A stretch of DNA of 32,000 bases, from assembly GCF_016127575.1 (NCBI RefSeq), contig NZ_CP066018.1, forward strand, positions 780,001 through 812,000, in the 5' to 3' direction. Positions 6,137 to 32,000 of this stretch are shown here, piece after piece (position 1 is the first letter of the stretch; every line of letters starts with the position of its first letter). A program made the translations under genes and the position numbers. This stretch comes from Cupriavidus necator. Its GTDB lineage: Bacteria > Pseudomonadota > Gammaproteobacteria > Burkholderiales > Burkholderiaceae. The notes beneath the pieces are model-generated. The model searched no databases and was not told the DNA's origin. It saw nothing but the letters and a program-made list of their open reading frames with translations.

Positions 6137-6251
6137 AACCGGCACGGCTGGCGCCCGGGGGCGCCGGCTCCCACCACTGGGGCTCATTCGCAGTCCCTGA
6201 TACAGCACTTAAGCCACGTCGAATACCCATGACGGCCGTCATGGCGCATCA

Positions 6252-6284: not shown

Positions 6285-6347
6285 CGTGACAGTCCACCCG
6301 CACAGGCCTTGCCACACGTGCCGGCTGGCCGATTCCCGAGGATTCCG

Positions 6348-7121: not shown

Positions 7122-7139
7122 CGGAACGCTGCGCGCACC

Positions 7140-7850: not shown

Positions 7851-7863
7851 GCCGGGACCCGCC

Positions 7864-9095: not shown

Positions 9096-9113
9096 GCGTC
9101 TGTCTCCTTGCAA

Positions 9114-9713: not shown

Positions 9714-9809
9714 TGGATGTGGAACGGCTGTTTTTTTGGGTGGCTATTATTGCACGCCGGGGGCAGCCGCCATGCCCGCCCATCTTCCCATTCCTGCCGC
9801 AGGACTACC

Positions 9810-10604: not shown

Positions 10605-10613
10605 GGATGTCGG

Positions 10614-10630
10614 GTGCCGGTGGCCGGCAC
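10614..10630 (-). terminator. GC hairpin between the DUF3141 gene stop and the modE start (possible terminator/attenuator, no U-tract)
   Basis: GTGCCGG-TGG-CCGGCAC, a perfect 7-bp stem with a 3-nt loop. On the minus strand it ends 9 nt before the modE ATG. Confidence 0.3.
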
Positions 10631-10688
10631 CGCAATGGAGTCCGAGACGCGGCTATGGTAATCCGAATTGCGGATCGGTCCGGCGCAC

Positions 10689-12974
10689 TCAGTCCTGGTG
10701 CGCGGCCTCATCCCCCTTGGCTGAGTCGGCAACCTCGCGCGGATGACCCGTCCCCATCACTTCGGCGACTTCGCGATAGCGCCCCAGCCGCTCGCCTGAC
10801 AGCGGGCCGCCGACCGTCATCACGCGATGCGCCGCCACCATCAGCTTGCGGCGGGTCTCGCGGTCCGGCACCAGTGCCGGCAGCGCCCGGATCGCGCGCT
10901 GCGGATCCAGCCTGACGATAAAGCTCTGCTGGCGCACCGCGGTCTTGAACGCGGCCAGGTCGGCCTGGCCGCCGGATTGCCCGGTGGCTTGCTGCTGTTC
11001 GCGCGCGATGCGACGCAGCAGGTTGAACGGCCGCTCCTCGATGGCGCTGGGGCGATCGGCAACGTAGGCCAGCACGCGCACAAAGGCCTCCAGCGTGCCA
11101 CCCTGCCCGATCGCCGCCTCGGCATCATGCAGCCGGCGCGCGGCCAGCTCCTTGCGCAGCGCCACAGTCACGGGCGACTCCAGGTTGACCGGCGCCGGCG
11201 CGCGCAGCCCCACCAGCGCCGCCATCGCCGGCGAAGCGTAGATCGCCTCGAAGGCCCGCTCGTACCAGGCATCGCGCAGGTCGCGGAACTGGTCGAGCGC
11301 GCTGACGATCTGCGCCGAGGCCGCGTGCTCCAGCGTCAGCAGCGGATTGTCCGCCGATACCGGCGCGCGATGCTCGCGCACCAGCGGCGCCAGCGCGCCG
11401 ATCCACGCCATCCATGGGTTCACGTCGGTCGCCAGCTCGCGCTCCAGCCGCGCGGGACGCAGCGCGCGCAGCCACTGCGCGCTCAATTCGTTGGACATGG
11501 CGCGTACCCACGGCGAGGCGAAGGTGTCGTAGATATGCTGGTTGACCTCGGCCACGCGCCGCACCACCTCGAAGGCGCGCTCGTCGTCGCGGCCGTCGTC
11601 CAGCGCCAGGATGTCGGCAATGCCGCGGCGCTCGAAGCGCATCAGGTAGCGCCCTTCGACCAGGTCGCGGTGCCGCAGGTCGGGCGCGACGTCTTCGATC
11701 TTCGCCTCGTACAGGCCCGGCGGCAGCACGTCGATCAGGTCCAGTGCGCAGAACAGTTCGCTGTGCTCGCGGTTGGCCACGCCCGCGGAGACAAAAATGC
11801 CGAGGTGGCCCACGGTCGGGTGCAGGCAGTAGACGATCACCTGGTCGTTGGCGACCAGTTCCTCATCGCTCGCGTACAGGTCCGGGATCCAGTTCAGCGC
11901 CTGCTGCGGCGGCGTAATGTTGTCCCCCCAGGAGGCAAAGATGATCACCGGCGAGCGCACGTTGCGCAGGTCCACCACGGTCTTGCCGTCGGTGCTGCGC
12001 ACCTCGCCCGCGGTGAGCCGGTTGCCGACGAACAGCTTCTGCACGATCCAGTCGATCTCGGCGCGGTTCATCAGGAAGTGGCCACCCCACCAGCGCTCGA
12101 AGTCGAGGAAGCGCGGGCCTTCGGTGTCGGCCTTCGCATAGACGTCGTAGAGCTTCTCCCACAGTGTATTGGCGGGATTGAGCTGTTCGAAGTTCTCCAC
12201 CAGCCAGGCGCCGTCGAAGCGGCCATTGCCCAGGTCAGCAATCAGCGAGGCCAGCCACGAACCGCCCAGCAGGCCGCCGCTGTAGCGCATCGGGTTGCGC
12301 CCGCGCACGCCGGACCAGTACGCCAGCGGCGCGCCGGCCAGCAGCAACGGGCCGGTGCGCTCCGGCGCCACCGCGGCCAGCATCATCAGCGCCCAGCCGG
12401 CCTGGCAGTTGCCGATGATGAAGGGCTTGCCCGGTGCATCCGGGTGGCGCTCGCCAACGATCTGCAGGAAGGCAGCCTCGGCGCGCGCCACCGATTCGAT
12501 GGTCTGGCCCGGGCAGGGCTCGTAGAAGAAGGTGATGAAATAGCACGGATGACCGGTGCGCAGCGCGATGCCGATCTCGCTGTCGGCCTTGAAACCGCCG
12601 ATGCCCGGGCCGTGGCCTGCGCGCGGGTCGATCACCACGAAGGGGCGCAGGGCGGGATCGGTCGGGCTGTCCGCCGGCGGCACGATGCGCAGCAGCGCGT
12701 AGTTGGCGGGTTCAGGCAGCTGGCGGCCATCGGCCAGCAGTTCGTGCTCGAACACCAGCACGGGCGGCATGCCCTCAAGCTCATGCTCGGCGGACTCGTT
12801 GCCGCGCTGGCGCAGGATGTCGAGCAGCAGCACGGTGCGCTGCCAGGCGTCCAGGGCGTATTCCAGCGCCGGCTGTGCCAGTGCCGCGAACGGGTTGGCG
12901 TGCGCGGACAGACTGGTAGCGGTCGAGGTGGCGCTGCTGTCCCGCGGCAGGTCGGCGCGTTCGCGTGCGGTCAT
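10689..12974 (-). CDS. DUF3141-type alpha/beta-hydrolase-fold protein (PHA-synthase-related family)
   Basis: Start at ATG 12974 (MTARERADL) with GGGGAG 7 nt upstream. 761 aa. The family assignment is by recollection of the N-terminal ALEYALDAWQRTVLLLDILRQRGN... pattern and of the usual neighbourhood with pta/ackA. Confidence 0.65.
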   Translation of the reverse strand: MTARERADLPRDSSATSTATSLSAHANPFAALAQPALEYALDAWQRTVLLLDILRQRGNESAEHELEGMPPVLVFEHELLADGRQLPEPANYALLRIVPPADSPTDPALRPFVVIDPRAGHGPGIGGFKADSEIGIALRTGHPCYFITFFYEPCPGQTIESVARAEAAFLQIVGERHPDAPGKPFIIGNCQAGWALMMLAAVAPERTGPLLLAGAPLAYWSGVRGRNPMRYSGGLLGGSWLASLIADLGNGRFDGAWLVENFEQLNPANTLWEKLYDVYAKADTEGPRFLDFERWWGGHFLMNRAEIDWIVQKLFVGNRLTAGEVRSTDGKTVVDLRNVRSPVIIFASWGDNITPPQQALNWIPDLYASDEELVANDQVIVYCLHPTVGHLGIFVSAGVANREHSELFCALDLIDVLPPGLYEAKIEDVAPDLRHRDLVEGRYLMRFERRGIADILALDDGRDDERAFEVVRRVAEVNQHIYDTFASPWVRAMSNELSAQWLRALRPARLERELATDVNPWMAWIGALAPLVREHRAPVSADNPLLTLEHAASAQIVSALDQFRDLRDAWYERAFEAIYASPAMAALVGLRAPAPVNLESPVTVALRKELAARRLHDAEAAIGQGGTLEAFVRVLAYVADRPSAIEERPFNLLRRIAREQQQATGQSGGQADLAAFKTAVRQQSFIVRLDPQRAIRALPALVPDRETRRKLMVAAHRVMTVGGPLSGERLGRYREVAEVMGTGHPREVADSAKGDEAAHQD

Positions 12975-13251
12975 TCCACTCCCCTGGTTGGCGCCCCGTC
13001 CGGCGTATCCGCGCGCTTGGCGGCGCGGCCGAAGTGACGCATGTTGCTTTGCAACAAAACCAAGCGTACCAGCCGCTGCCCTGCGGTGCAACCCAGAGAC
13101 TGGTTGCGCGCAATGCCACACTGTTAGCGCGCCGCGCGGTCATCGACTGGAAAGAATCGTCGCCTATACTGGCGCAGGGCACTTTGCGCACCGCAGCAAT
13201 CGCGCACCCGCGCGCGGCCGGCGGGCTGCGCACCGGGCGGCGCCTGTCGCA

Positions 13252-13447
13252 AGGGAAGCGGGCAATATGCTGGCCAAGCAGCTGACCTTCCTGGCCGGCG
13301 CCGAAGCCGCCGGCATCGTGCTGGGCGCGCGCGTTCCCATCATCCTCACCAGCCGGGCCGACAGTGTGCGCGCGCATCGGCAGCTGCGCCATTGCCGTGC
13401 TGCTGGCCCATGCGCGCCGCAGCGCCGCAGCCGCGGCGCAGGTCTGA
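13252..13447 (+). pseudogene. pta: 3' remnant of a phosphate acetyl/butyryl-transferase (pta) gene, 5'-deleted and frameshifted
   Basis: EAGNMLAKQLTFLAGAEAAGIVLGARVPIILTSRADSVRA is a PTA_PTB C-terminal motif. After gcgcgcgc at ~13368-13375 the conserved tail (RIGSCAIAVLLAHARRSAAAAAQV, stop TGA 13445-13447) continues only in the +1 frame. Nothing Pta-like lies upstream. Confidence 0.55.
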
Positions 13448-13494
13448 GCCATGCCCGTGCAGCCCTTGCGCAACCACTTGGGAGTCCATCCAGC

Positions 13495-14730
13495 GTGCCC
13501 GCCATCCACCCCGCCGTGCATCCCGTCATCCTCGTTGTCAACGCCGGCTCATCCAGCGTCAAGGTCTCGGTCTACGCCGTGCCCGACGCCGCGCATGGCA
13601 ATGCCGACATCAACCCGGTGCTGAGCGCGCACGGCCAGATCGAGGGCATCGGCGTGGCGCCGCGCCTGACCGCGCGCATGGTCGACGGGCGCGTGGTCGC
13701 CGACGAGACCTTCCCGCAGGCCCAGGTGGCCGACCACGACGCCGCCTTCCGCCTGGTGCGGCTGGTACTGAGCGTGGGCCTGCGCGACAACCCGCCGGTG
13801 GCGATCGGCCATCGCGTGGTGCATGGCGGTGCCGACTATGCGCAGGCCGTGCGCATCGACGACGAGGTGATCGCAAAGCTGGAAGCGCTGGTGCCGCTGG
13901 CACCGCTGCACCAGCCGCACAACCTGACTGCAATCCGCGCGGTGCGCGAGGCTGTGCCGGACCTGCTGCAGGTGGCCTGCTTCGACACCGCCTTCCATGC
14001 CGGCCACGACGTGCTGGCGCAGCTGATGGCGCTGCCCTACGCGTACTACGAGCGCGGCATCCGGCGCTATGGCTTCCACGGGCTGTCGTACGAGTACATC
14101 GCGCGCCGGCTGCGCCAGGTCGCGCCCGACCTGGCCGAGGGCCGCGTGATCGTGGCCCACCTGGGCAACGGCGCCAGCCTGTGCGCCATGCGCGACGGCC
14201 GCAGCGTGGAAAGCACCATGGGCCTGACCGCGCTCGACGGCCTGCCCATGGGCACGCGCTGCGGCTCGGTCGATCCCGGCGCGCTGCTGTGGCTGGCGCA
14301 GCAGGGCATGAAGCCGGCCGAGATCCAGACGATGCTGTACCAGGAATCCGGGCTGAAGGGACTGTCAGGCGTGAGCAGCGACATGCGCGCGCTGCTGGCC
14401 AGCGATGCGCCGCGCGCGCGGCTGGCGCTGGACTTCTACGCCTACCGCGCCGCGCAGGAGATCGGCAAGCTCGCCACCACGCTGGGCGACCTTGACGCGC
14501 TGGTGTTCACCGCGGGCATCGGCGCCAACTCGCCGCCGGTGCGCGCACGCATCTGCGAACACCTGGCGGGGCTGTTCGGCATCGCGCTCGACGGTGGCGC
14601 CAACGGCGAGAACAGCCAGCGCGTCAGCCGCGACGACAGCCGCGTGCCGGTGCTGGTGCTGCCGACCGATGAAGAAGGGATGATTGCGCTGAACACCGCC
14701 CGCATCCTGCGCGAATGCGGGCAGCTCTGA
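13495..14730 (+). CDS. ackA: acetate kinase
   Basis: GTG 13495 with GGAG 10 nt upstream (GTG 13516 is an alternative). Motifs VVNAGSSSVKVSVY, HRVVHGG, FDTAFH, YGFHGLSYEY, AHLGNGASLCA and FTAGIGANS. Confidence 0.85.
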   Translation: MPAIHPAVHPVILVVNAGSSSVKVSVYAVPDAAHGNADINPVLSAHGQIEGIGVAPRLTARMVDGRVVADETFPQAQVADHDAAFRLVRLVLSVGLRDNPPVAIGHRVVHGGADYAQAVRIDDEVIAKLEALVPLAPLHQPHNLTAIRAVREAVPDLLQVACFDTAFHAGHDVLAQLMALPYAYYERGIRRYGFHGLSYEYIARRLRQVAPDLAEGRVIVAHLGNGASLCAMRDGRSVESTMGLTALDGLPMGTRCGSVDPGALLWLAQQGMKPAEIQTMLYQESGLKGLSGVSSDMRALLASDAPRARLALDFYAYRAAQEIGKLATTLGDLDALVFTAGIGANSPPVRARICEHLAGLFGIALDGGANGENSQRVSRDDSRVPVLVLPTDEEGMIALNTARILRECGQL

Positions 14731-14731
14731 G

Positions 14732-15553
14732 TCAGCCTGCCAGGTAGTGCCCGCGCAGCTGCGCGACGTCCACTTCGAGCGCGTCGCGCAGGTAGTTGTC
14801 GACGCTGCCCCAGCCCGCGTCGATGGCCCGCATCGACGCATCGAGATAGCTGGCGCGGACTTCCAGCAGCGGCGTCATCACCGCGGGGGCCACGCCAAGC
14901 CCGGCCATGCGCGCCAGCGCAGTCTGGTTGAACTGCGCATTGCGCTGGTTCGACTCCAGGTAGTTGGCCAGGATATCGTCCTGCGCCACGCCCAGCGCCG
15001 CCAGCAACAGCAGTGCGGCAAAGCCGGTGCGGTCCTTGCCGGCGGTGCAGTGGAACAGCAGCGTCTTGCCGCCTTGCGCGGTACGCATGAAGCCGGCAAA
15101 GGCCTCGCGGTAGCGCACCGGGAAGTCGCCGTAGACCTCCAGCATGAAGGCATCCATCTGTGCCGGCGTGCTGGCGCGCAGGCGCGGCATCAGCACATCC
15201 ATCGCCATGCTGCCCTCCAGCACCGGCGCCGCCACCCAGTGGAAGCGCTGGCCGAAGGCGGCCTCTTCAGGCGACTTCTCGCCGGGCGAACGGAAATCCA
15301 CCACCATGTCGAGCCCGAGCGTCTGCAGCCGCTCCAGGTCCGCCGCGCTGGCCAGCGCGGGGTTGCCGCTGCGGTACAGGCGCCCCTGGCGCACGCGGCG
15401 TCCGCCCGCGCCGGCCAGGCCGCCCAGGTCGCGCGCATTGCTGATGGTGTCGAATGCCAGGTCATGCCGGCCCTGCACGCTGGCCGCGGCCGGAGCCTGC
15501 GGCACGACGGCATGGGCGGACAGGCATCCTGCGCGTTGAAGCCACTTGATCAT
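14732..15553 (-). CDS. protein-tyrosine phosphatase family protein
   Basis: Start at ATG 15553 (MIKWLQ) with AGGAAAG upstream. CX5R active-site loop HCTAGKDRTG, and an NARDLGG...YRSG N-terminal pattern. Confidence 0.8.
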   Translation of the reverse strand: MIKWLQRAGCLSAHAVVPQAPAAASVQGRHDLAFDTISNARDLGGLAGAGGRRVRQGRLYRSGNPALASAADLERLQTLGLDMVVDFRSPGEKSPEEAAFGQRFHWVAAPVLEGSMAMDVLMPRLRASTPAQMDAFMLEVYGDFPVRYREAFAGFMRTAQGGKTLLFHCTAGKDRTGFAALLLLAALGVAQDDILANYLESNQRNAQFNQTALARMAGLGVAPAVMTPLLEVRASYLDASMRAIDAGWGSVDNYLRDALEVDVAQLRGHYLAG

Positions 15554-15603
15554 TGTTCTTTCCTGATTGTCCTTGCGATGCAGGCCGATGCTGTGCCGGC
15601 GCT

Positions 15604-15849
15604 TCAGCGCGCGCGGTACGCCGGCACATGCCAGCGCAGGTGGCAGCCGGCGATATAGCGCCGGTCCAGCCGCGCCACCAGCTTCCACACCGTCAGCGCA
15701 CTGGCATCGATATCGACCCACGCCCACGGGTGCTTCGGGTCGCCCGCTTCCACCAGTTCCACCGAACGGATCTTCGCATACCGCGCCAGCGCCTCGCGCA
15801 GTGCCGCCGCGTCCAGGCCTGCTTTCAGTCCACGTACTAAAACCTTCAT
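15604..15849 (-). CDS. small hypothetical protein, RRM-like (possible RNA-binding)
   Basis: Start at ATG 15849 (MKVLVRGL) with GGAG 6 nt upstream. 81 aa. Only weak resemblance to small bacterial RRM proteins. Confidence 0.4.
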   Translation of the reverse strand: MKVLVRGLKAGLDAAALREALARYAKIRSVELVEAGDPKHPWAWVDIDASALTVWKLVARLDRRYIAGCHLRWHVPAYRAR

Positions 15850-16283
15850 GGTCGGCTCCAATTATTTCAGATCACTCCCGCTCATGCATCACCCGGCCGG
15901 GGCCATGGTGGCGCGCTTGCGCACACACCGCCGCCAGACCTTATGTGGCGAGCTTCTCACTGGTATGACGCCTGCGGCGGCGCGGGTATCCATTGATCAC
16001 ACGTGGACTTGATCTTGCTCATGGCGGGCGGAAATAGCTTGGAATCGCCCTCGACAGGGCCGGCTGCCGGTCGGAAAATTCCTATCATGTCGAACGCGGC
16101 GGCCACGCCAGCAGCGAGGCCGCTCCGGGCACACCGCACACGGATGCCGTCTCGCGACCGACACCTGCCTGTCCTGCCGGCCGCGCTGTGCCAGCGCCGG
16201 CGCGCCGCACTGTCTGCCGAGAGCCGTCCGAGCCAGGTGCACCCGGGTACCGAGCAGGATCACCAACCAAAAGGATGCCGGCA

Positions 16284-17825
16284 ATGACAGATACTTCCGC
16301 CTCCCCCCCTTCCGCCCCTTCCGCCCCTTCCGCCCCTTCCGCCGCGGCTGCACAGGCTGTCGTGCCGGCGCCGAAACTCACGCTGCACTGGGGCCTGTTC
16401 GCCGCCGTTGCTGCGCTGCTGGTGGTGCTGGCGATCCCGCAGCCCGAGGGGCTGACCGTCGCCGGCCAGCGCATGCTGGCGATCCTCGCCTTCGCCATCG
16501 TGGTGTGGATCACCGAGGCGGTGTCATATGAGACCAGCGCCATCATGATCACCTCGCTGATGGCGGGGCTGATCGGCTTTGCGCCGACCGTCAACGACCC
16601 CTCGGTGCAGTACGGCACCTCGAAGGCGCTCGGCATGGCGCTGGCGGGGTTCTCCAACACCGCGCTGGCACTGGTCGCCGCGGCGCTGTTCATCTCCGCG
16701 GCGATGACCGTGACCGGGCTGGACCGGCGCATCGCGCTGGTGACGCTGTCTGCCATTGGCACCAGCACGCGCCGCATCCTGATCGGCACGATCGCCGTCA
16801 CCATCGCGCTGAGCCTGGTGGTGCCCAGCGCCACCGCGCGCAGTGCCTGCGTGGTGCCGATCATGATGGGCGTGATTGCAGCGTTCGGCGTCGACAAGAA
16901 GTCCAACATCGCCGCCGGCATCATGATCACGGTGGCGCAGGCCACCAGCATCTGGAACGTCGGCATCCAGACCGCCGCGGCGCAGAACCTGCTGACGGTG
17001 GGCTTCATGGACAAGCTGCTGGGCGAGCGCATCACCTGGCTGCAATGGCTGATCGCGGGCGCGCCATGGGCCATCGCAATGTCGGTGGTGCTGTATTTCC
17101 TGGTGCGCTTGCTGCTGCCCGCCGAAACCGACGCCATCCCCGGCGGCAAGGAAGCCGTGCAGCGCGAGCTGTCGGCCCTCGGCCCCATGAGCGCGCCGCA
17201 GAAGCGGCTGGCCGCGGTATCGCTGGGCCTGCTGCTGTTCTGGGCCACCGAAGGCAAGCTGCACAGCTTCGATACCGCCACCGTGACCTTCGTCGGCCTG
17301 GTGATCCTGATGATGCCGCGCATCGGCGTGATGGACTGGAAGACCATGCAGCAACGCACGCCGTGGGGCACGCTGATCGTGTTCGGCGTCGGCATCAGCC
17401 TGGGCACGGCGCTGCTGTCCACCAACGCCGGCCAGTGGCTGGGGCAGTTCGTGGTCACGCATTCCGGACTGGCGGCGCACGGCGCGCTGCTGGTGTTTGC
17501 GATCCTGTCGGCCTTCCTGATCCTGATCCACCTGGGCTTTGCCAGCGCCACCGCGCTGACCGCGGCACTGCTGCCGATCCTGATCGCGGTGCTGCAGACA
17601 CTGCCCGGCGACATCAACCGCGTGGGCATGACCATGCTGCTGGGCTTTACCGTCAGCTTCGGCTTTATCCTGCCGATCAACGCGCCGCAGAACATGGTGT
17701 GCCTGGGCACGGAAACCTTCAACGGCCGCCAGTTCGCGCGCATCGGCATCCCCGTGACGATCATCGGCTACGCCATGATGCTGCTGTTCGCAGCCACCTA
17801 CTGGCGCTGGCTGGGCTGGGTCTGA
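16284..17825 (+). CDS. DASS/SLC13-type anion (di/tricarboxylate or sulfate) transporter
   Basis: Start at ATG 16284 (AAGGA 8 nt upstream). ~513 aa and very hydrophobic. LAILAFAIVVWITEAV, ...PSATARSACVVPIM... and ...ILPINAPQNMV... hairpin-type motifs are typical of the family. Confidence 0.8.
   Translation: MTDTSASPPSAPSAPSAPSAAAAQAVVPAPKLTLHWGLFAAVAALLVVLAIPQPEGLTVAGQRMLAILAFAIVVWITEAVSYETSAIMITSLMAGLIGFAPTVNDPSVQYGTSKALGMALAGFSNTALALVAAALFISAAMTVTGLDRRIALVTLSAIGTSTRRILIGTIAVTIALSLVVPSATARSACVVPIMMGVIAAFGVDKKSNIAAGIMITVAQATSIWNVGIQTAAAQNLLTVGFMDKLLGERITWLQWLIAGAPWAIAMSVVLYFLVRLLLPAETDAIPGGKEAVQRELSALGPMSAPQKRLAAVSLGLLLFWATEGKLHSFDTATVTFVGLVILMMPRIGVMDWKTMQQRTPWGTLIVFGVGISLGTALLSTNAGQWLGQFVVTHSGLAAHGALLVFAILSAFLILIHLGFASATALTAALLPILIAVLQTLPGDINRVGMTMLLGFTVSFGFILPINAPQNMVCLGTETFNGRQFARIGIPVTIIGYAMMLLFAATYWRWLGWV
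16308..16343 (+). repeat. in-frame 9-bp tandem repeat (CCTTCCGCC x4) encoding (PSA)4
   Basis: Read directly: cct tcc gcc repeated four times in codons 9-20 of the transporter gene. Confidence 0.95.
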
Positions 17826-17838
17826 GGAGGTACGAACC

Positions 17839-18888
17839 ATGAAGATCTCCCTCACCAGCGCCCGCCAGCTTGCCCGCGACATCCTCGCCGCGCAGCAGGT
17901 GCCCGCCGACATCGCTGACGACGTGGCCGAGCACCTGGTCGAATCCGACCGCTGCGGCTATATCAGCCACGGCCTGTCGATCCTGCCCAACTACCGCACC
18001 GCCCTCGACGGCCACAGCGTCAACCCGCAAGGCCGCGCCAAATGCGTGCTGGACCAGGGCACGCTGATGGTGTTCGACGGCGACGGCGGCTTCGGCCAGC
18101 ACGTGGGCAAGTCCGTGATGCAAGCAGCGATCGAGCGCGTGCGCCAGCATGGCCACTGCATCGTCACTCTGCGCCGCTCGCACCATCTCGGCCGCATGGG
18201 CCACTACGGCGAGATGGCGGCCGCCGCCGGCTTTGTGCTGCTGAGCTTCACCAACGTGATCAACCGCGCGCCGGTGGTGGCGCCGTTCGGCGGCCGCGTG
18301 GCGCGGCTCACCACCAACCCGCTGTGTTTCGCCGGCCCGATGCCCAACGGGCGGCCGCCTCTGGTGGTGGACATCGCCACCAGCGCGATTGCCATCAACA
18401 AGGCCCGTGTGCTGGCCGAGAAAGGCGAGCCGGCGCCCGAAGGCAGCATCATCGGCGCCGACGGCAACCCCACCACCGACGCGTCAACCATGTTCGGCGA
18501 ACACCCCGGCGCGCTGCTGCCCTTTGGCGGCCACAAGGGCTACGCACTGGGCGTTGTGGCCGAGCTGCTGGCGGGCGTGCTGTCCGGCGGCGGTACCATC
18601 CAGCCAGACAATCCGCGCGGCGGCGTGGCCACCAACAACCTGTTCGCGGTGCTGCTCAATCCCGCGCTGGACCTGGGCCTGGACTGGCAGAGCGCCGAGG
18701 TCGAGGCGTTCGTGCGCTACCTGCACGACACACCGCCGGCGCCGGGCGTCGACCGCGTGCAGTACCCCGGCGAGTACGAGGCCGCCAACCGGGCGCAGGC
18801 CAGCGACACGCTAAACATCAACCCGGCCATCTGGCGCAATCTTGAGCGCCTGGCGCAGTCGCTCAACGTGGCCGTCCCCACGGCCTGA
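17839..18888 (+). CDS. Ldh_2 family (malate/L-lactate/ureidoglycolate-type) NAD(P)H oxidoreductase
   Basis: GGAGG 7 nt upstream. ESDRCGYISHGLSILPNY, RSHHLGRMGHYGE and FGGHKGYALGVVAELLAG are typical Ldh_2 motifs. Confidence 0.8.
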   Translation: MKISLTSARQLARDILAAQQVPADIADDVAEHLVESDRCGYISHGLSILPNYRTALDGHSVNPQGRAKCVLDQGTLMVFDGDGGFGQHVGKSVMQAAIERVRQHGHCIVTLRRSHHLGRMGHYGEMAAAAGFVLLSFTNVINRAPVVAPFGGRVARLTTNPLCFAGPMPNGRPPLVVDIATSAIAINKARVLAEKGEPAPEGSIIGADGNPTTDASTMFGEHPGALLPFGGHKGYALGVVAELLAGVLSGGGTIQPDNPRGGVATNNLFAVLLNPALDLGLDWQSAEVEAFVRYLHDTPPAPGVDRVQYPGEYEAANRAQASDTLNINPAIWRNLERLAQSLNVAVPTA

Positions 18889-18946
18889 AGGTTCCGCCTG
18901 CGGCGGGACTCGCACCCTGCCGCACACGGCTGGCACAATACGTGCC

Positions 18947-19642
18947 ATGAAAAGACTCTGGTCCGCCTTCATCAAGCTGCTGGTGCTCGCCGTGATCGGC
19001 GGCGCGCTGCTGGCTGCCATCGCCATCCTGGCCGCCAACCGGCAGCTGCCGTCGCTCGACGCCCTCACCGCCTTCCGCCATACGCCCGACTACGTGCCCA
19101 TCGGCAAGATCCCGCGCGAGCTGACCGGCGCCGTGGTGGCGATCGAGGATGAGCGCTTCTACGTGCATGACGGCATCGACTACATCGGCGTCGTCCGTGC
19201 CGGCGTTGCCAACCTGTCGGACGAGCTGTCGCAGGGGGCATCGACCATCACCATGCAGGTGGCACGCAATTTCTACCTGTCGCGGGACAAGACCTATACC
19301 CGCAAGCTGTACGAGGTGCTGCTTTCATACCGGATTGAAAAGGCGCTGACCAAGGACGAGATCCTGGAGTTGTACATGAACAAGATCTACCTGGGCCAGG
19401 GGGCGTACGGCTTTGCCGATGCGGCGCGGACTTACTTTGGCAAGCGGCTGGATCAGTTGACGCTGGCTGAGTGTGCGATGCTTGCCGGGCTCCCCAAGGC
19501 GCCGTCGGCTAATAATCCGGTGGCGAATCCGAGGCGGGCGCGGCAGCGGCAGGTTTATATCCTGCAGCGGATGCTGGAGCTTGGACGGATCTCGCGAGGA
19601 GAGTATGACGGGGCATTGCTGGAGCCGTTGAGGCTGAGGTAA
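18947..19642 (+). CDS. stand-alone GT51 peptidoglycan glycosyltransferase (PBP1A N-terminal-module-like)
   Basis: Start at ATG 18947 with an N-terminal TM. GT51 motifs EDERFYVHDGID, GASTITMQVARN, RKLYEVLLSYRIE, KDEILELYMNKIYLG and GLPKAPSANNP. It ends after 231 aa with no transpeptidase domain. Confidence 0.8.
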   Translation: MKRLWSAFIKLLVLAVIGGALLAAIAILAANRQLPSLDALTAFRHTPDYVPIGKIPRELTGAVVAIEDERFYVHDGIDYIGVVRAGVANLSDELSQGASTITMQVARNFYLSRDKTYTRKLYEVLLSYRIEKALTKDEILELYMNKIYLGQGAYGFADAARTYFGKRLDQLTLAECAMLAGLPKAPSANNPVANPRRARQRQVYILQRMLELGRISRGEYDGALLEPLRLR

Positions 19643-20422
19643 GCCGTCGGTAATGGCGCTGGCAGAAAATTCCCCCCTGGAGGAAGGATCAGAGTCCGGC
19701 CACGATTCGGCGAATGGAAGCAACGCCGTCAATCTCGATAGCGCAGTGGGCAGCGGACTGCCAAACGCTGCCAAGGCTGCCATCGCGCAATAGGCCCGGG
19801 GGCCAGTCGTCTCGCGTTGACTTTGGCCCGATAACGCCGTCGCCTGAAGCGCCAGGCCGGGATGGGCCAGCCGCCTGAGCGAACGCTGGGCACGCTCACG
19901 CCAGCCTGGCCGATGGCGGGCCCAGAGGGCATCGACCGCCGCGGCCAGGCCGGTGCGGTCCGCCGTGTGTGTGTGGCCGTGCACGATTTGCACCAAATCG
20001 GTAAGCCACTGTGCGGGCGCGGCAAGGATATGACCGGCCCATTGCGCGCTCGCGGCCTGCCAGACCACCAGCGGATAGCGGCGCCCAACCCGGTCATGCG
20101 ATGCAGCCAAGACACCGAGCAGGTAGCTGCTTTCGCTGGGAAACTGCAGGCCGCACGGCCGCAGGATGAAGAGGCATGGTCCAGACGGGCGCAAGCGGGA
20201 CTGAACCGAGAGACTGGGCGGGGTCAGGTGCAGCCAATGCCGGACGCCGCCGCCCGCGGAATGCGACGCCGCCCTCGCCAGGAGTTCGTCGTCCCGATGA
20301 TCGAACCAGCTCCGCCACGCCTGCACCTGGTCCAGCGGCGCATTGTGGCGAACAAAGTCTCCCAGCGCTGGCAGCTTGCCGAAAATCGACGGCGCCGTGA
20401 TCACCCGGATCTCCCGGGACAC
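19325..20422 (-). CDS. tagF: T6SS-associated protein TagF (DUF2094-like) with an unusually long C-terminal tail
   Basis: N-terminus ...PSIFGKLPALGDFVRHN is the TagF signature. Start is GTG 20422, or GTG 20404 which overlaps the tssM stop as GTGA. There is no stop codon until 19325-19327, inside the convergent GT51 gene. Confidence 0.65.
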   Translation of the reverse strand: MSREIRVITAPSIFGKLPALGDFVRHNAPLDQVQAWRSWFDHRDDELLARAASHSAGGGVRHWLHLTPPSLSVQSRLRPSGPCLFILRPCGLQFPSESSYLLGVLAASHDRVGRRYPLVVWQAASAQWAGHILAAPAQWLTDLVQIVHGHTHTADRTGLAAAVDALWARHRPGWRERAQRSLRRLAHPGLALQATALSGQSQRETTGPRAYCAMAALAAFGSPLPTALSRLTALLPFAESWPDSDPSSRGEFSASAITDGLPQPQRLQQCPVILSSRDPSKLQHPLQDINLPLPRPPRIRHRIISRRRLGEPGKHRTLSQRQLIQPLAKVSPRRIGKAVRPLAQVDLVHVQLQDLVLGQRLFNPV

Positions 20423-26856: not shown

Positions 26857-27396
26857 TCAATCAGGTTTGGAAATTGTGATGGTCTGCTGGTCCAACGAGA
26901 CTTGCAGCTTGACCTTGCGTGCCGGAATTGCCATGCGGTACCACGCAGCGTCCGGCGCCGGTGGCAGTTTGTAGACAGATCTCCAGGTGGCTTTGCCAAG
27001 CTCCCTGTACCCGACCAGAATGCCGATGGCTTGCGTGTCCGGATTGAGCTTGCGCTCGATGTCGCGCGACTCGCCGGGCCGGAGGATGAACTCGTCTCGT
27101 GCCAGCAGATCCTGCGTCAGCAGCGTCTTGTCCGACTTCTCCAGCGAGTAGTAGTCCGCATTCTCAAACGCGCTGTCGGTCTTGAGTTCGTAGACCCGAA
27201 CCAGGACCGGAGAGGGCCTGCCCTTGTCGTCAGGGTTGACGGTATCTTTGGCGGATACAGCCAGATCCAGCTTCATCTGCTCGCGCTGGGCCGGTGCTGT
27301 GGAGCAGGCCGAGCCGAGGACCGATGCTGCGAATAGGCCAAGCAGCGACACGCTTCTCGCCATCCTGTGCCGTATCAAGAGAGCCTTGCGAGTCAT
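26857..27396 (-). CDS. tssJ: T6SS outer-membrane lipoprotein TssJ
   Basis: Start is ATG 27396 (ATGA overlap with the PAAR stop) or ATG 27363. Signal peptide ends ...VLGSAC. VRVYELKTDSAFENADYYSL is the typical TssJ core. Confidence 0.8.
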   Translation of the reverse strand: MTRKALLIRHRMARSVSLLGLFAASVLGSACSTAPAQREQMKLDLAVSAKDTVNPDDKGRPSPVLVRVYELKTDSAFENADYYSLEKSDKTLLTQDLLARDEFILRPGESRDIERKLNPDTQAIGILVGYRELGKATWRSVYKLPPAPDAAWYRMAIPARKVKLQVSLDQQTITISKPD

Positions 27397-27653
27397 GAGC
27401 CCACCCGCGCCGACACCGAGCCAATCAGTACCGCGCCGCAATCCGTCATATCACCGCTGACCGCACCTGGCACGCCATCGACCTTGTACAGGCCTCTTAC
27501 CTGCGAAATGCGGCTTATCCCATGCAAGGGACAACTGACTGCATCCCCCTGACGTGCGATAGGGCGACCGTTGATCTTGCGGTTGGGCGAGCCTGCCAGC
27601 ACGACGCCGCCATGCGTGTGACCATCGCCAACGACAACAATGGAATCTGCCAT
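27393..27653 (-). CDS. PAAR-domain spike-tip protein
   Basis: 86 aa from ATG 27653 (MADSIVVVGDGHTHGG...GDAVSCPLHG...GDMTDCGAVLIG) with GGGAG ~12 nt upstream. An in-frame upstream ATG at 27785 is possible but would start inside the lipoprotein-gene stub. Confidence 0.8.
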   Translation of the reverse strand: MADSIVVVGDGHTHGGVVLAGSPNRKINGRPIARQGDAVSCPLHGISRISQVRGLYKVDGVPGAVSGDMTDCGAVLIGSVSARVGS

Positions 27654-27667
27654 TGATATATCTGCTC

Positions 27668-27798
27668 CCAGGTAAATGGCGTACATACTGCAATGGGCCG
27701 GTGCAACTCTTCCGATGAGCGGGCCAGCAGGAGCGCCCCGACGAAATCCTCGTTGGTGGCAAAGCGTGTTCATCCAATTGACCATTGTTCTCATCCCC
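27668..27798 (-). pseudogene. degenerate 5' stub of a third copy of the tandem lipoprotein gene
   Basis: Minus-strand GGGGATGAGAACAATGGTCAATTGGATGAACACG...GGGCGCTCCTGCTGGCCCGCTCATCGGAAGAG aligns with the RBS, start and lipobox region of copy 1 (GGGGATGAAAGAACCATGGCCACTCGCATGAACAAG...GCGGCGCTCCTGTCGGCCTGTTCATCGGGAAAG). It carries indels, and the lipobox Cys is lost. Confidence 0.45.
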
Positions 27799-29358
27799 TC
27801 AACGCCCATCCGTCTGCTTGCCGAACCACGGGTAGTAGGCAGTTGTCCTGCCCCGAGCCCGCGGCCATTCCTTGGGAGGTTCGCGCTTGGTCCAGCCTGG
27901 CGGTGGCGCCACCAGCACCGTCCACGCATCGTTGGGATCCACCACGCTGGTCACGACTGCGCTATGCCCGGTCTGGTCCGCATACGCGACCGCATAGGCA
28001 ATGTTCAGCCCCGCGCTGGCCGCGCGGGCCGGGCCCACCATATGTTCCGAGACGCTGCGGAAGTCTTTCAACTGGTCCAGGTCCGGCCACTGCTGGTGCA
28101 CCGCCGCACGCAGGGGCGCAAGCACTGTGGTCACATTGGGCGCGCGCCGGTCCATGTCGTGGTAGACGCGGTCGACCGGATGCTCCTGCGGCACTTGCGC
28201 TTGCACGGCTTGCAGCAGGCCCTGCCACGCGCCACCAGGGGTAGCTGCCTTCGCTCCGACGCCGCCCTCGTGCTGTTGCGGGGTGTACAGCGCCGCCAGC
28301 GGCGCATAGCCCCAGTCCGCGCTGGGATGTCCCAGGATCAGCAGCACCGAATTTTCGTTGGTCTGCTCGCCTTTCGGGTAGTTGGGCGCGTCCATGGTGT
28401 ACACCCACACCGTCTTCTTCGGGTTGGCGTTCAGGTAGGCAATCGCCGCCTGCAGGTCATAGAAGCCCACGGCTTCCTCGCCCGCCATCACCGTGACATT
28501 GGCCAGCTTTGGTTCGGGGAAGATCTTCAGGCTCATCGCCTCGGCCGCGCTATAGATTTCCATAAAGAACAGCCGGCGCGCTGCGTTAAGCGTGAAGGTG
28601 GGCAGGCCAATCACCATGTCGCTATCATGGGACAGCCCCCGTACCGGACTGCCCCTGTCGTCGTAAATCTTCACGAAGAGGTCATACATGCGCGCCTCGG
28701 CGTGCTCCTCATTCTCCGCCAGTATTGAGGGGGCCGGCATGCCAAGCCGGATATGTTGAGCGAGTTCGTCTAGGCCGTTCAGATACCGATTCGACTCCTT
28801 GATATAGGTCGGTGTATTGATCCACGCCTGCGACATCCCGGCAAATACTCGGATGTCGGCAAAGTCCGGCCGTCGCGTGCCGTTCCGGATCGAGTAGAAG
28901 TAATTCGCGTTGACCGCCGTGTGGTAGCCCAGTGGATAGAGCGGCTCACGGATCAGGGCATCAAGGGCTTTCCAATAGACCGGATTGGGATTGTCATTCT
29001 TCCAGACCGGGTTGACCCCGCGGACGAGCAATCCCGGCGCGTCACCGAGCTTCAGATGCGGGCTGTCCGTATCAGAGGGGTTGCGGTCCGCCATTCCCTG
29101 CGCCCACAACAGGTTCCAATGGGTCGGGTAGTCCTTCCACATCAGCGGATTCATCCACTGCACCCCAAGTACATACGCTGCCGGCGCGTTGGGGCCGCTC
29201 GCGAGTGTGCGCGCAGCAAGTGGATACGGCGACGGATCTCGGTGATAGTTGGACATGGGCTTTCCCGATGAACAGGCCGACAGGAGCGCCGCGACGGTGG
29301 CGCCCACCATGACAGCAATCGCGCGCCGTACGGCTACCTTGTTCATGCGAGTGGCCAT
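27799..29358 (-). CDS. T6SS-linked lipoprotein, paralogue 1 (candidate periplasmic immunity protein; possibly DUF2875/Tli3-Tla3-like)
   Basis: 519 aa. Signal peptide with lipobox LSAC (Cys29), Ser at +2. RBS GGGGA upstream of ATG 29358. It lies between an effector-like gene and PAAR and is paralogous to the next gene. Confidence 0.6.
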   Translation of the reverse strand: MATRMNKVAVRRAIAVMVGATVAALLSACSSGKPMSNYHRDPSPYPLAARTLASGPNAPAAYVLGVQWMNPLMWKDYPTHWNLLWAQGMADRNPSDTDSPHLKLGDAPGLLVRGVNPVWKNDNPNPVYWKALDALIREPLYPLGYHTAVNANYFYSIRNGTRRPDFADIRVFAGMSQAWINTPTYIKESNRYLNGLDELAQHIRLGMPAPSILAENEEHAEARMYDLFVKIYDDRGSPVRGLSHDSDMVIGLPTFTLNAARRLFFMEIYSAAEAMSLKIFPEPKLANVTVMAGEEAVGFYDLQAAIAYLNANPKKTVWVYTMDAPNYPKGEQTNENSVLLILGHPSADWGYAPLAALYTPQQHEGGVGAKAATPGGAWQGLLQAVQAQVPQEHPVDRVYHDMDRRAPNVTTVLAPLRAAVHQQWPDLDQLKDFRSVSEHMVGPARAASAGLNIAYAVAYADQTGHSAVVTSVVDPNDAWTVLVAPPPGWTKREPPKEWPRARGRTTAYYPWFGKQTDGR

Positions 29359-29373
29359 GGTTCTTTCATCCCC

Positions 29374-30939
29374 TCAACGCCCATCCGTCTGCTTGCCGAA
29401 CCACGGGTAGTAGGCAGTTGTCCTGCCCCGCGCCCGCGGCCATTCCTTGGGAGGTTCGCGCTTGGTCCAGCCTGGCGGTGGCGCCACCAGCACCGTCCAC
29501 GCATCGTTGGGTTCCGCCACGCTGGTCACGACTGCGCTATGCCCGGTCTGGTCCGCATACGCCACCGCATAGGCAATGTTCAGCCCCGCGCTGGCCGCGC
29601 GCGCCGGGCCCACCATATGTTCCGAGACGCTGCGGAAGTCTTTCAACTGGTCCAGGTCCGGCCACTGCTGGTGCACCGCCGCACGCAGGGGCGCAAGCAC
29701 TGTGGTCACATTGGGCGCGCGCCGGTCCATGTCGTGGTAGACGCGGTCGACCGGATGCTCCTGCGGCACTTGCGCTTGCACGGCTTGCAGCAGGCCCTGC
29801 CACGCGCCACCAGGGGTAGCTGACTTCGCTCCGATGCCGCCCTCGTGCTGCTGCGGGGTGTACAGCGCCGCCAGCGGCGCATAGCCCCAATCCGCGCTGG
29901 GATGTCCCAGGATCAGCAGCACCGAATTTTCGTTGGTCTGCTCGCCTTTCGGGTAGTTGGGCGCGTCCATGGTGTACACCCACACCGTCTTCTTCGGGTT
30001 GGCGTTCAGGTAGGCAATCGCCGCCTGCAGGTCATAGAAGCCCACGGCTTCCTCGCCCGCCATCACCGTGACATTGGCCAGCTTTGGTTCGGGGAAGATC
30101 TTCAGGCTCATCGCCTCGGCCGCGCTATAGATTTCCATAAAGAACAGCCGGCGCGCTGCGTTAAGCGTGAAGGTTGGCAGGCCGATTACCATGTCCGAGT
30201 CATAAGGGAGCCCCCTTCTGGGCTGACCGTCATAACCGGCATAGTTCTTCACAAAATAGTCCGCCATACGCTCATCGGCATGCTCTTCGTTCTCTGCCAG
30301 AATCGACGGTGCCGGCATTCCCCAATCGATCTGCTCTGCCAATCGGTCCCGGCCATTCATGTATCGATTGGACTCCTTGATATAGGTGGGTGTATTGATC
30401 CATGTCTGCGGCATGCCGGCGAACACTCGGATGTCGGCAAAATCCGGCCGTCGCGTGCCGTTTCGGATCGAATAGAAGTAGTTCGCGTTGGCCGCGGTGT
30501 GGTAGCCCAGTGGATAGAGCGGCTCACGGATCAAGGCGTTAAGCGCTTTCCAGTAGACCGGGTTGGGATTGTCGTTCTTCCAGACTGGGTTGACGCCGCG
30601 GACAAGCAGCCCCGGCGCATCACCGAGCTTCAGATGCGGGCTGTCCGTATCGGACGGATTGCGGTGCGCCAGTCCCTGCGCCCACAGCAAATTCCAGTGG
30701 GTCGGGTAGTCCTTCCACATCAGGGGATTCATCCATTGCACGCCAAGCACATATGCGACTGGGGCGTCAGGGCCGCTCGCGGGCACGCGCGCAGCAATTG
30801 GATACGGCGACGGATCTCGGTGGTAGGTAGACATGGGTTTTCCCAATGAACAGGCTGACAGCAGCGCCGCAGTGACGGCTCCCGCGATGGCCACGGCTAG
30901 CCGGTTGGTGTGCTGTTTGAATCGGTCAGTGGTGTTCAC
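29374..30939 (-). CDS. T6SS-linked lipoprotein, paralogue 2 (candidate immunity protein)
   Basis: Start is proposed at GTG 30939 (GGGAGGG 5 nt upstream), giving 521 aa with lipobox LSAC, colinear with paralogue 1. The ORF-track start at 31113 would add 58 residues overlapping the effector gene. Confidence 0.6.
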   Translation of the reverse strand: MNTTDRFKQHTNRLAVAIAGAVTAALLSACSLGKPMSTYHRDPSPYPIAARVPASGPDAPVAYVLGVQWMNPLMWKDYPTHWNLLWAQGLAHRNPSDTDSPHLKLGDAPGLLVRGVNPVWKNDNPNPVYWKALNALIREPLYPLGYHTAANANYFYSIRNGTRRPDFADIRVFAGMPQTWINTPTYIKESNRYMNGRDRLAEQIDWGMPAPSILAENEEHADERMADYFVKNYAGYDGQPRRGLPYDSDMVIGLPTFTLNAARRLFFMEIYSAAEAMSLKIFPEPKLANVTVMAGEEAVGFYDLQAAIAYLNANPKKTVWVYTMDAPNYPKGEQTNENSVLLILGHPSADWGYAPLAALYTPQQHEGGIGAKSATPGGAWQGLLQAVQAQVPQEHPVDRVYHDMDRRAPNVTTVLAPLRAAVHQQWPDLDQLKDFRSVSEHMVGPARAASAGLNIAYAVAYADQTGHSAVVTSVAEPNDAWTVLVAPPPGWTKREPPKEWPRARGRTTAYYPWFGKQTDGR

Positions 30940-32000
30940 CGAGCCCTCCCTGCAGAACTTGCCCGCCGAAGGCTGGGTCACGCTCGGTGGGTCGGTGATG
31001 CTTGTTTGCGGAAGGTGTCTGTGAGATGCGGTTGTCCGAGCGCTCATCATCCATACCAAGCGCTCTCGGAACATCAGCTTTGTAATCCTTTTGACTCTCC
31101 AGCCGATCTCCATTTATCCGACCAGAACCGTAGTACCAACTCCATTCCTTCATCTGATCGTCTTCCCGGTCACAGCGCCTCCAGTCCGCCAGTTGCCTCA
31201 GCCACTTCATCTCCGCCTCCGGCATCATGCAGATGCCCACATCAACGTCATAGGCGAGCACCTTCTCGCAGTGCACCGGATTGGTCAGGATGGTCGAGTG
31301 GTTCGTAGCATTCAGATCCACCGCGTATTTCAGGAAATACCCGCGCTTGTCTGCATCGAACTCGCGGAATTCCGCATACTCGTCCCCCGCAAGGTCCCCG
31401 CCATCCTTCATCTGCTCAATGGCCGCCTCATAGGGATCGTCAGCCTTGCGTCGGGCAAGCTGACGCACGCTGGCATTGTGTTCATAGCGCAGCGCCGCTT
31501 CGTCGCTGTAGTCCGCCGCGCCCTGCCCCGCGCTCCGGTACTTGTCGTAGATGTCGTCGCTCCTGCCTGCCGGATTGAGCGCATCCGTGTGCGACTCGGG
31601 TCCCTGGTTGAAGATCCCTTCCACTGTCCCGGCTTTCGCGCTTTGCCCACCATCGTCAGGCGCCCGTTTGTCGGGGTGATACAGGTGGATGGCCCGCGGC
31701 GCGATGGCCTCCTTCACTGCCGGGGCATTGATCGGCACGGTCCAGCCGTCCGGTGGGTCGGCGTTCACGGGCACATAGTTGACATGCCCGAACGTCGTCA
31801 CCCTTAGCAGGGCGAAGGCCATTTCATAGATTCCACCGAGCGCGGTCGCACCAAGCTTTTCTCCGAAGCCGCGCTGGTCGTCCTGCCATACCCGCGTCAG
31901 ATGAAAGCGCAGTGGCAATGGCTTGCGGTACCAGAATGCCTTCCCATCGCCCTGGATCGGATCGACCTTCGACGGGTTACCTTTGTCGTAATAGACGAAG
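30926..32000 (-). CDS. C-terminal ~357 codons of a large T6SS effector-like protein (Tle3/DUF3274-like tail); 5' end beyond window
   Basis: The frame is open from base 32000 (FVYYDKGNPSKVDPIQGDGKAFWYRKPLPLRFHL...) to TGA at 30926. The segment ...LNATNHSTILTNPVHCEKVLAYDVDVGIC... recalls the DUF3274 C-terminal domain of Tle3-type phospholipase effectors. It is followed by exported lipoprotein genes and PAAR. Confidence 0.5.
   Translation of the reverse strand, partial: FVYYDKGNPSKVDPIQGDGKAFWYRKPLPLRFHLTRVWQDDQRGFGEKLGATALGGIYEMAFALLRVTTFGHVNYVPVNADPPDGWTVPINAPAVKEAIAPRAIHLYHPDKRAPDDGGQSAKAGTVEGIFNQGPESHTDALNPAGRSDDIYDKYRSAGQGAADYSDEAALRYEHNASVRQLARRKADDPYEAAIEQMKDGGDLAGDEYAEFREFDADKRGYFLKYAVDLNATNHSTILTNPVHCEKVLAYDVDVGICMMPEAEMKWLRQLADWRRCDREDDQMKEWSWYYGSGRINGDRLESQKDYKADVPRALGMDDERSDNRISQTPSANKHHRPTERDPAFGGQVLQGGLGEHH

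Follow-up and report, generated by a model that had tools for sequence, protein, structure and literature searches.

A Tle3 effector gene followed by two tandem lipoprotein genes of probable immunity type in the type VI secretion cluster of Cupriavidus necator

The right-hand end of a 32,000-nucleotide stretch of the Cupriavidus necator genome (contig NZ_CP066018.1, positions 780,001 to 812,000; the whole stretch is called the window here) raises the question of what two tandem lipoprotein genes do directly behind the gene of a Tle3 phospholipase effector in a type VI secretion system (T6SS) cluster. For the Pseudomonas aeruginosa gene PA0259, which also follows tle3, the published models conflict. 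According to Berni 2019 (PMC6560169), PA0259 is Tla3, a cytoplasmic adaptor which is translated from the fourth ATG and binds both the DUF3274 domain of Tle3 and VgrG2b, and the upstream gene PA0261 encodes the immunity protein Tli3. According to Wood 2019 (PMC7376260; PMC6899460), PA0259 is the exported Tli3, prey being protected only in the presence of the signal peptide, and PA0261 neutralises the VgrG2b metallopeptidase. The answer that we consider likely for C. necator is a Tle3 effector accompanied by two immunity lipoproteins of the Tli3 type, that is, PA0259 in the sense of Wood 2019, and not by cytoplasmic loading adaptors. An earlier note, made by a model from the letters of the window and a list of their open reading frames (ORFs), had placed a Tli3 and a Tla3 next to the P. 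aeruginosa effector and had found the architecture here to differ from that arrangement. The arrangement agrees with Berni 2019, one of the two conflicting models; the C. necator architecture indeed departs from it but fits the model of Wood 2019.

Within the window the effector is represented by an open frame of 357 codons reaching the window edge and ending in a TGA at 30928-30926. The complete gene was available from another C. necator assembly contig with the same locus (L001), found by an exact-protein look-up with lipoprotein 1, where it encodes 782 aa (L001:7666-10014) and follows directly after vgrG in the order hcp-tli4-like-vgrG-tle3-...-PAAR-tssJKLM. The full-length protein matched the Pfam family Tle3 (PF24322) with E = 3.7e-91 and 306 bits over residues 35-366, a part that lies outside the window, and the crystal structure of the Tle3 of adherent-invasive Escherichia coli (AIEC; 8BOZ_A) with E = 6.6e-41. 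Its motifs CHSQG (225), NPHD (347) and TNHS (657) align to Ser265, Asp377 and His574 of 8BOZ_A, the catalytic triad of that enzyme (PMC9860674). Only the catalytic His (TNHS) and a weak Tle3_C/DUF3274 region are within the window, the Ser and Asp motifs being located beyond its edge. Judged by its sequence, the effector belongs unambiguously to Tle3 and has kept all of the Ser/Asp/His triad.

These results bear on several points of the earlier note. It had proposed to look beyond position 32000 for a GxSxG motif and a vgrG gene, and the CHSQG motif and vgrG were both found there; it had suggested a library scan for Tle and DUF families, in which the full-length effector was recognised as PF24322 and the lipoproteins matched nothing directly; and it had held that a lack of homology to any T6SS toxin, together with a lack of toxicity, would refute its proposal, where the homology to Tle3 proved clear. 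The tail had been said there to resemble the DUF3274 domain of Tle3-type lipases; the Tle3_C match (PF11678) stays just below the cut-off of 23 bits, the window tail scoring 22.1 bits (E = 1.3e-4) and the full-length protein 20.4 bits, and is a weak, partial one covering profile positions 68-127 of 174.

The two genes behind tle3 carry clear export signals. Lipoprotein 1 starts with a GTG (30939) that overlaps the tle3 stop by 14 nt and is preceded by the Shine-Dalgarno (SD) sequence GGGAGGG, and the ATG of lipoprotein 2 (29358) is located 15 nt past the stop of lipoprotein 1; the earlier note had both distances exactly right. The two proteins are 90% identical over 517 residues. Both N-termini display a basic n-region, a hydrophobic core and a lipobox (AALLSAC) followed by Ser in position +2, the lipobox and its Ser having been noted before, and the lipobox Cys is the single Cys of each protein, the mature form being Cys-free. 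Of the 20 family members with a complete N-terminus, 18 retain the lipobox Cys, and distant relatives contain lipoboxes or N-terminal transmembrane (TM) helices. We infer from these signals in the sequence that the lipoproteins are exported in vivo. Lipoprotein signals or TM helices were also described for DUF2875 homologues (Wood et al., PMC7376260).

A second candidate start codon has to be weighed against this. A Met is found 6-8 residues past the lipobox Cys in nearly all members of alignment A1, a profile of 29 close family members, and gene callers start at this internal Met in eight A1 entries annotated as signal-less (P0008, P0020, P0022, P0024, P0025, P0026, P0028 and P0029), as well as in the second copy of locus L007 and the first copy of locus L010. 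In the internal-Met cases that were checked, an in-frame upstream start restored the signal peptide. The second copy in Ralstonia flatus was rejected as truly signal-less, an in-frame upstream ATG giving a signal peptide with an AVAC lipobox, and the first copy of L010 was rejected for the same upstream-start behaviour. For lipoproteins 1 and 2 the predicted SD strength is -11.6 and -8.4 kcal/mol at the upstream starts versus -4.2 and -4.3 kcal/mol at the internal Met.

The nearly universal internal Met, often the called start, is one of the points in favour of the lipoproteins being adaptors or chaperones of the Tla3 type, which would load the C-terminal domain of Tle3 onto VgrG while immunity is provided elsewhere, for instance by a Tli4-like lipoprotein. 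The same role is indicated by the closest solved structure, 8YZ3, a Tla3 deposited as 'adaptor protein', by relatives that match the Pfam entry 'Type VI lipase adapter protein Tla3, C-terminal', and by the cytoplasmic PA0259 of Berni 2019 with its downstream ATG and its binding of Tle3 DUF3274 and VgrG2b (PMC6560169). An adaptor must, however, be cytoplasmic, and as far as sequence can tell the window genes are built for export, with a strong upstream SD, a canonical lipobox and a weak internal SD; the retention of the signal in nearly all complete N-termini argues in the same direction. Moreover, Tle3 of AIEC binds VgrG directly and without an adaptor (PMC9860674).

It may also be considered that one gene gives two products, exported immunity protein from the upstream start and a cytoplasmic, Tla3-like adaptor isoform from the internal Met. 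With the internal Met in the window accompanied by a weak SD only, this appears unlikely. If true, it would reconcile the two contradictory papers on PA0259 and make a protein with a thiolase fold (see below) a dual immunity and adaptor factor, and the variants of the patch that distinguishes the paralogues (also below) could reflect a division of labour between them.

A further argument for immunity is the company that the family keeps. Exact-protein look-ups gave nine loci, from C. necator, two related Cupriavidus (L010 and L011), C. taiwanensis, Pandoraea, R. flatus, R. pickettii and Ralstonia satellite islands, and in 9/9 of them a family member was located immediately downstream of tle3. 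A scan of genome contigs seeded with a single Tle3 sequence gave no confirmed relatives, its patterns being too specific. The satellite islands consist of vgrG-tle3-lipoprotein only, sit within purine-catabolism genes far from any core cluster, and contain no other candidate partner gene; because no other gene is there, the lipoprotein is the sole possible source of immunity in these minimal islands. In R. pickettii the order is tagJ-tle3-lipoprotein-tssE. A single lipoprotein copy is found in Pandoraea, R. pickettii and the Ralstonia satellite islands, and three copies are present in C. taiwanensis (L005), where a tle3 with an in-frame deletion (L005:9671-10399) separates the second copy from the third. 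In this deleted gene residues 1-52 are fused to residues 568-758, with loss of the catalytic Ser and Asp. Retention of a partner gene after decay of the toxin is typical of immunity genes. Finally, lipoprotein and Tle3 identities co-vary across the genomes. It is because of the export signal, the linkage in all nine loci, the co-divergence, the retention beside a dead toxin gene and the adaptor-free binding of AIEC Tle3 to VgrG that the C. necator family fits the picture of Wood 2019.

The minimal islands speak equally against adaptors, since an adaptor there would leave no other source of immunity. The Tli4-like gene named above as such a source is found in none of the other eight tle3-lipoprotein loci, and a cognate Tle3 immunity function of its product is on that ground unlikely. 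Taking both sides together, we regard the adaptor reading as quite improbable. An unambiguous export signal, combined with the position as the sole partner of Tle3 in several loci, favours immunity at least for this branch. The periplasm-acting Tle3-type lipase with exported immunity lipoproteins that the earlier note had proposed gains from the triad, the position after vgrG and the linkage to tle3, the lipoproteins being putative immunity proteins.

The presence of two copies was traced by comparing the paralogues along their length. Codons 36-180 are 88% identical at the nucleotide level, with a proportion of synonymous differences (pS) of 0.38, and codons 181-250 are 68% identical, with pS 0.73 and a proportion of nonsynonymous differences (pN) of 0.21, whereas codons 251 to the end are 98.5% identical with pS 0.04. 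Because identity and pS differ in this manner between codon regions, the tandem pair is, on the sequence pattern, an old duplication of which the 3' part of about 770 nt was recently homogenised by gene conversion. The most divergent region forms a patch which in the AlphaFold2 model comprises helices 197-204, 217-228 and 246-250 and strands 230-232 and 238-240, with a predicted local distance difference test score (pLDDT) of 73-94. The patch was compared between this genome, L010 and L011, whose Tle3 proteins are 88-91% identical. Each of the three genomes contained one type-1 copy and one type-2 copy, and in L010 the order of the two was swapped. Between genomes, patch identity was 93-99% for type 1, whichever gene position it occupied, and 74-89% for type 2, whereas the flanks of the patch resembled the paralogue within the same genome. 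Because both patch versions persist despite concerted evolution, their maintenance suggests two binding specificities. The two patches might be directed at the resident Tle3 and at a variant Tle3 that competitors carry, or else at different surfaces or states of Tle3.

Another way to read the pair is that one copy is functional and the other a redundant or decaying duplicate without a distinct role. The nearly identical 3' halves represent much redundancy, and there are single-copy loci in Pandoraea, R. pickettii and the Ralstonia satellite islands. Both ORFs are however uninterrupted and have an SD and a lipobox apiece, the pN/pS ratio of 0.10-0.28 across the diverged parts is indicative of purifying selection, and both patch types are kept in the three genomes even where the order is swapped. 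A redundant second copy is regarded as unlikely.

The identity of the family was approached by sequence and by fold. A search of 5.8 billion proteins gave only 33 clusters, those with a name all belonging to Cupriavidus, Ralstonia and Pandoraea and being called 'lipoprotein', 'hypothetical protein' or 'virulence factor'; lipoprotein 2 is 100% identical to the entry 'Lipoprotein [Cupriavidus necator]'. The A1 profile, run against 1.84 billion representatives, gave 117 proteins (66 at E<=1e-10), including P0036 (E = 6.4e-74) and P0048 (E = 4.9e-44), the latter from Derxia gummosa and named 'DUF2875 family protein' by NCBI. Pfam Tla3_C (PF20995) was matched by 9 of 32 full-length distant relatives, and its gathering score of 24.8 bits was passed by P0048 (33.3), P0180 (31) and P0036 (30.6). 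Among the 29 close relatives there were eight weak matches to Tla3_C (best E = 0.0037), and none for the window proteins. Pfam DUF2875 (PF11394) was matched neither by the window proteins and the 29 close relatives (E<=10) nor by the 32 distant ones (E<=0.01). PDB sequences were searched both with one lipoprotein and with the profile of its close family, and the matches were at chance level only and included no Tli3. A widened profile including the intermediates (A2) matched the P. aeruginosa Tla3 chain 8yz3_A with E = 3e-11 in the C-terminal lobe.

A first AlphaFold2 model reached a pLDDT of 68, and a second one of lipoprotein 2, made with a deeper alignment, reached 85.7 with a predicted template modelling (TM) score (pTM) of 0.87. 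The best PDB match of both models was 8YZ3, the P. aeruginosa Tla3 (E = 3.3e-8 and 8.1e-11), at moderate TM-scores (TMq 0.43-0.44, TMt 0.51-0.52), followed by hundreds of ketosynthase and FabH structures with a Foldseek E<=1e-3. There is no Cys column conserved in the A1 family outside the signal peptide, and the nucleophile of thiolases is absent because the mature protein is without Cys. The models thus point to a thiolase-like pseudoenzyme fold lacking the nucleophilic Cys, and the lipoproteins are a branch of the PA0259 superfamily which is divergent and unannotated and lies outside the Pfam families as now delimited. The fold, which the earlier note could not assign by eye, is in this way resolved as thiolase-like, Cys-less and remotely related to PA0259. 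That note had further remarked that no signal-less adaptor copy is visible; there is none, but this is not the matter of a missing third gene, the lipoproteins themselves being the homologues of Tla3.

A fold which normally handles acyl chains raises the possibility that the lipoproteins are envelope proteins with a role other than immunity, either as lipid or lysophospholipid enzymes in repair or as structural or accessory factors of the membrane complex. The invariant residues include several His, Asp, Glu and Asn, the genes adjoin PAAR and tssJ, and a size of 520 aa and the degree of conservation are unusual for immunity proteins. The Cys-free mature protein is however without a nucleophile of the thiolase type, and the genes are linked to tle3 and not to the T6SS core, as seen in the satellite islands far from any core cluster. 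The varying copy number, the retention beside a decayed tle3 and the dimorphic patch are, furthermore, typical of immunity genes. We consider such a role very improbable.

With the lipoproteins read as Tli3-type immunity proteins, the proposed course of events may be depicted as follows. Tle3, an alpha/beta-hydrolase phospholipase, would travel on the VgrG/PAAR spike, be injected into the periplasm of Gram-negative neighbours and degrade membrane phospholipids there. The lipoproteins would be exported by the Sec and Lol systems and attached to the envelope on its periplasmic side. Lipoproteins without Asp in position +2 are predicted to be sorted to the outer membrane by the E. coli rule, and both proteins, having no Asp at +2, would be placed there. 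Each lipoprotein would bind incoming Tle3 in the periplasm stoichiometrically and block it, by analogy with the Tle3-Tli3 pair of AIEC.

Several observations weigh against immunity, and they are of different kinds. The binding, the neutralisation and the localisation of the lipoproteins are all inferred. Lipoproteins 1 and 2 have no match in Pfam or NCBIfam; their homology to PA0259 rests on intermediates and a moderate TM-score, and aligning A1 directly to Tla3_C fragments with hhalign gave no significant result (probability 0.3, E = 0.18), the fragment alignment having been built from a search with a 139-residue fragment of 8YZ3 that returned partial proteins only. The closest solved relative, 8YZ3, was published as well as deposited as a cytoplasmic adaptor (PMC6560169). 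Conservation is higher in the lipoproteins than in the toxin, which is atypical of fast-evolving immunity proteins. Two family members, P0013 and P0016 (L002:8001-9596), lack the lipobox Cys and have a Ser instead (LLLAAS and LLLTVS), with the hydrophobic segment retained. P0016 is the widespread copy of the Ralstonia satellite islands and was found on 23 contigs; it may rely on a different Cys (LAAAC) or on a type I signal. Finally, the strain has another exported lipoprotein upstream of vgrG, between hcp and vgrG, namely the Tli4-like protein of 364 aa (L001:3920-5014), with the lipobox LTTGC and matches to Pfam Tli4_N (E = 7.7e-14) and Tli4_C (E = 1.8e-28). The L001 locus contains no Tle4 gene, and the Tli4-like gene may be an orphan Tle4 immunity gene.

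The features of the locus are collected in Table 1.

Table 1. Annotated elements of the T6SS cluster in the window, listed from the effector to the end of the cluster.
Feature	Position	Strand	Basis or remark
Tle3, 3' part, last 357 codons and stop	30926..32000	-	identical to C-terminus of L001:7666-10014
Lipoprotein 1, 521 aa, GTG start, type-1 patch	29374..30939	-	ORF, SD and homology evidence
Predicted type II signal peptide of lipoprotein 1, lipobox LLSAC (Cys30), Ser +2	30850..30939	-	translation
Internal Met of lipoprotein 1 (Met36)	30832-30834	-	weak SD
Hypervariable patch of lipoprotein 1 (about aa 182-252), type 1	30184..30396	-	paralogue divergence
Lipoprotein 2, 519 aa, ATG start, type-2 patch	27799..29358	-	ORF, AlphaFold2 model
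Predicted type II signal peptide of lipoprotein 2, lipobox LLSAC (Cys29), Ser +2	29272..29358	-	translation
Internal Met of lipoprotein 2 (Met35)	29254-29256	-	weak SD
Hypervariable patch of lipoprotein 2 (aa 181-250), type 2	28609..28818	-	paralogue divergence
Putative gene-conversion tract, 3' ~770 nt of lipoprotein 2	27799..28566	-	98.5% nt identity to 29374-30141
PAAR spike-tip protein, 86 aa	27393..27653	-	Pfam PAAR_motif E=1.1e-21
TssJ outer-membrane lipoprotein	26857..27396	-	Pfam T6SS-SciN E=6.5e-41; TIGR03352 E=2.3e-41
TssK, 447 aa	25509..26852	-	PF05936 (T6SS_VasE) in L001 called gene
TssL with C-terminal OmpA-like domain, 425 aa	24235..25512	-	PF09850 DotU and PF00691 OmpA in L001
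TssM, 1273 aa	20401..24222	-	IcmF-related domains in L001; window ORF
TagF-like ORF, end of T6SS cluster	19325..20422	-	Pfam TagF_N E=5.7e-16

The effector gene, the two lipoprotein genes, PAAR, tssJKLM and tagF were all found on the minus strand as the earlier note had described them, and so was the coupling of PAAR to tssJ, in which the TGA of the former and the ATG of the latter overlap as ATGA (27396-27393); a second candidate ATG for tssJ is present at 27363. Upstream of the window, the order in L001 is clpV, tssB, tssC, hcp, a 35-aa ORF, the Tli4-like gene, vgrG (873 aa) and tle3. The best explanation of the region is a long T6SS operon, hcp - tli4-like - vgrG (outside the window) - tle3 - tli3a - tli3b - PAAR - tssJKLM - tagF, of which the region studied here is the cargo part. 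A promoter and terminator scan of 27300-32000 gave results at chance level, including nothing above chance in the 145-nt gap between lipoprotein 2 and PAAR (27654-27798), as would be expected of a single operon. Two 'terminators' within the lipoprotein genes were the same duplicated coding sequence, and separate transcription units are unsupported. The GC content by codon position, in the order GC3>GC1>GC2, backs the minus-strand frames, and the long plus-strand ORFs at 27676-28728 and 29845-30849 were rejected as genes, their codon-position GC being that of an antisense shadow. In two close relatives an extra gene of 139-140 aa without Pfam match is located between the second lipoprotein and PAAR (L010:7643-8065 and L011:7632-8051); this gene is missing here, where the 145-nt interval stands in its place.

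The G+C content is 0.68-0.71 in most 1-kb bins of the left part of the window (1-19000; lowest 0.65-0.67) versus 0.59-0.66 across the T6SS cluster, with a minimum of about 0.60 from tssK through the tle3 cargo region. The drop suggests that the T6SS cluster or its cargo was horizontally acquired. The left part harbours housekeeping genes (DUF3141, acetate kinase, Y_phosphatase3, Na/sulfate symporter, Ldh_2 and Transgly). At the border the TagF-like ORF overlaps the convergent Transgly (mtgA-like) ORF at 18842-19642 by about 318 nt (19325-19642) at the 3' end of the latter. The TagF_N match is confined to the N-terminal part of the TagF-like ORF, the C-terminal third resembles non-coding translation, and the gene caller left tagF uncalled on L001; tagF may be frameshifted or read through. 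In the plus-strand ORF at 12703-14730, of maximally 675 aa, the acetate kinase domain occupies residues 275-662 only. Translation probably begins far downstream of the first start codon, and this is an overlapping-ORF artefact of the kind expected in the left part of the window with its high GC.

Both the gene order and lipoprotein-type homologues of PA0259 were known already, and the cassette is of the standard T6SS effector-immunity type. What is new is modest: a family invisible to domain libraries, a thiolase-like pseudoenzyme apparently unrelated to AIEC Tli3, and a maintained two-allele patch, the last being a concrete and cheaply testable candidate for what determines specificity in an immunity protein of thiolase fold. 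For the family of roughly 30 clusters in Cupriavidus, Ralstonia and Pandoraea, a 'Tla3 adaptor' label given by fold or homology would conflict with the conserved lipoprotein signal. The family offers a natural test case for the PA0259 question, with clean comparative evidence on Tli3 versus Tla3.

Compared with PA0259 itself, the C. necator genes share the position immediately downstream of tle3 with a start at or overlapping its stop, and the thiolase-like two-lobed fold for which 8YZ3 is the best PDB match, with a profile link through intermediates. They differ in an identity of only about 14% in the structural alignment, in a length about 90 residues greater than that of the 8YZ3 chain (431 residues), and in the organisation as a tandem pair with a dimorphic patch. 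Furthermore, the start codon of PA0259 is disputed whereas the C. necator proteins have a clear lipobox, and no PA0261-like gene is present between vgrG and tle3, unlike in P. aeruginosa.

In the sister genus, the aux2 clusters of Ralstonia solanacearum have the order VgrG - Tle3 - one or more Tli3 - PAAR, and in aux9 a DUF2875 protein follows Tle3 (PMC11481896 supplement). Compared by gene order alone, these clusters resemble the C. necator module in the order and in the variable copy number after tle3, but aux2 and aux9 are satellite clusters whereas the C. necator module is located within the main T6SS cluster between vgrG and PAAR-tssJ.

With respect to enzymes of the same fold, FabH and FabF, the polyketide synthase (PKS) ketosynthases and the chain-length factor share the duplicated alpha/beta/alpha/beta/alpha architecture. 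The C. necator proteins differ from these condensing enzymes in having no active-site Cys, in being exported lipoproteins by their signals, and in an identity of 10-14%; no Pfam thiolase or ketosynthase match was found for the window lipoproteins.

The closest functional parallel is the Tle3/Tli3 pair of AIEC E. coli (8BOZ), in which the effector is homologous, triad included, and the immunity protein is an outer-membrane lipoprotein adjoining tle3. There, Tli3 binds Tle3 1:1 and inserts a loop in the catalytic crevice (PMC9860674). The AIEC Tli3 has however about 270 aa and three stacked beta-sheets, whereas the C. necator proteins have 520 aa and an alpha/beta thiolase-like model. The 8BOZ chains were absent among the 50 fold matches listed for the AlphaFold2 models. 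Because Tli3 was neither among the fold matches listed nor matched in PDB sequence searches, the C. necator lipoproteins appear to be an unrelated solution to the same problem as AIEC Tli3.

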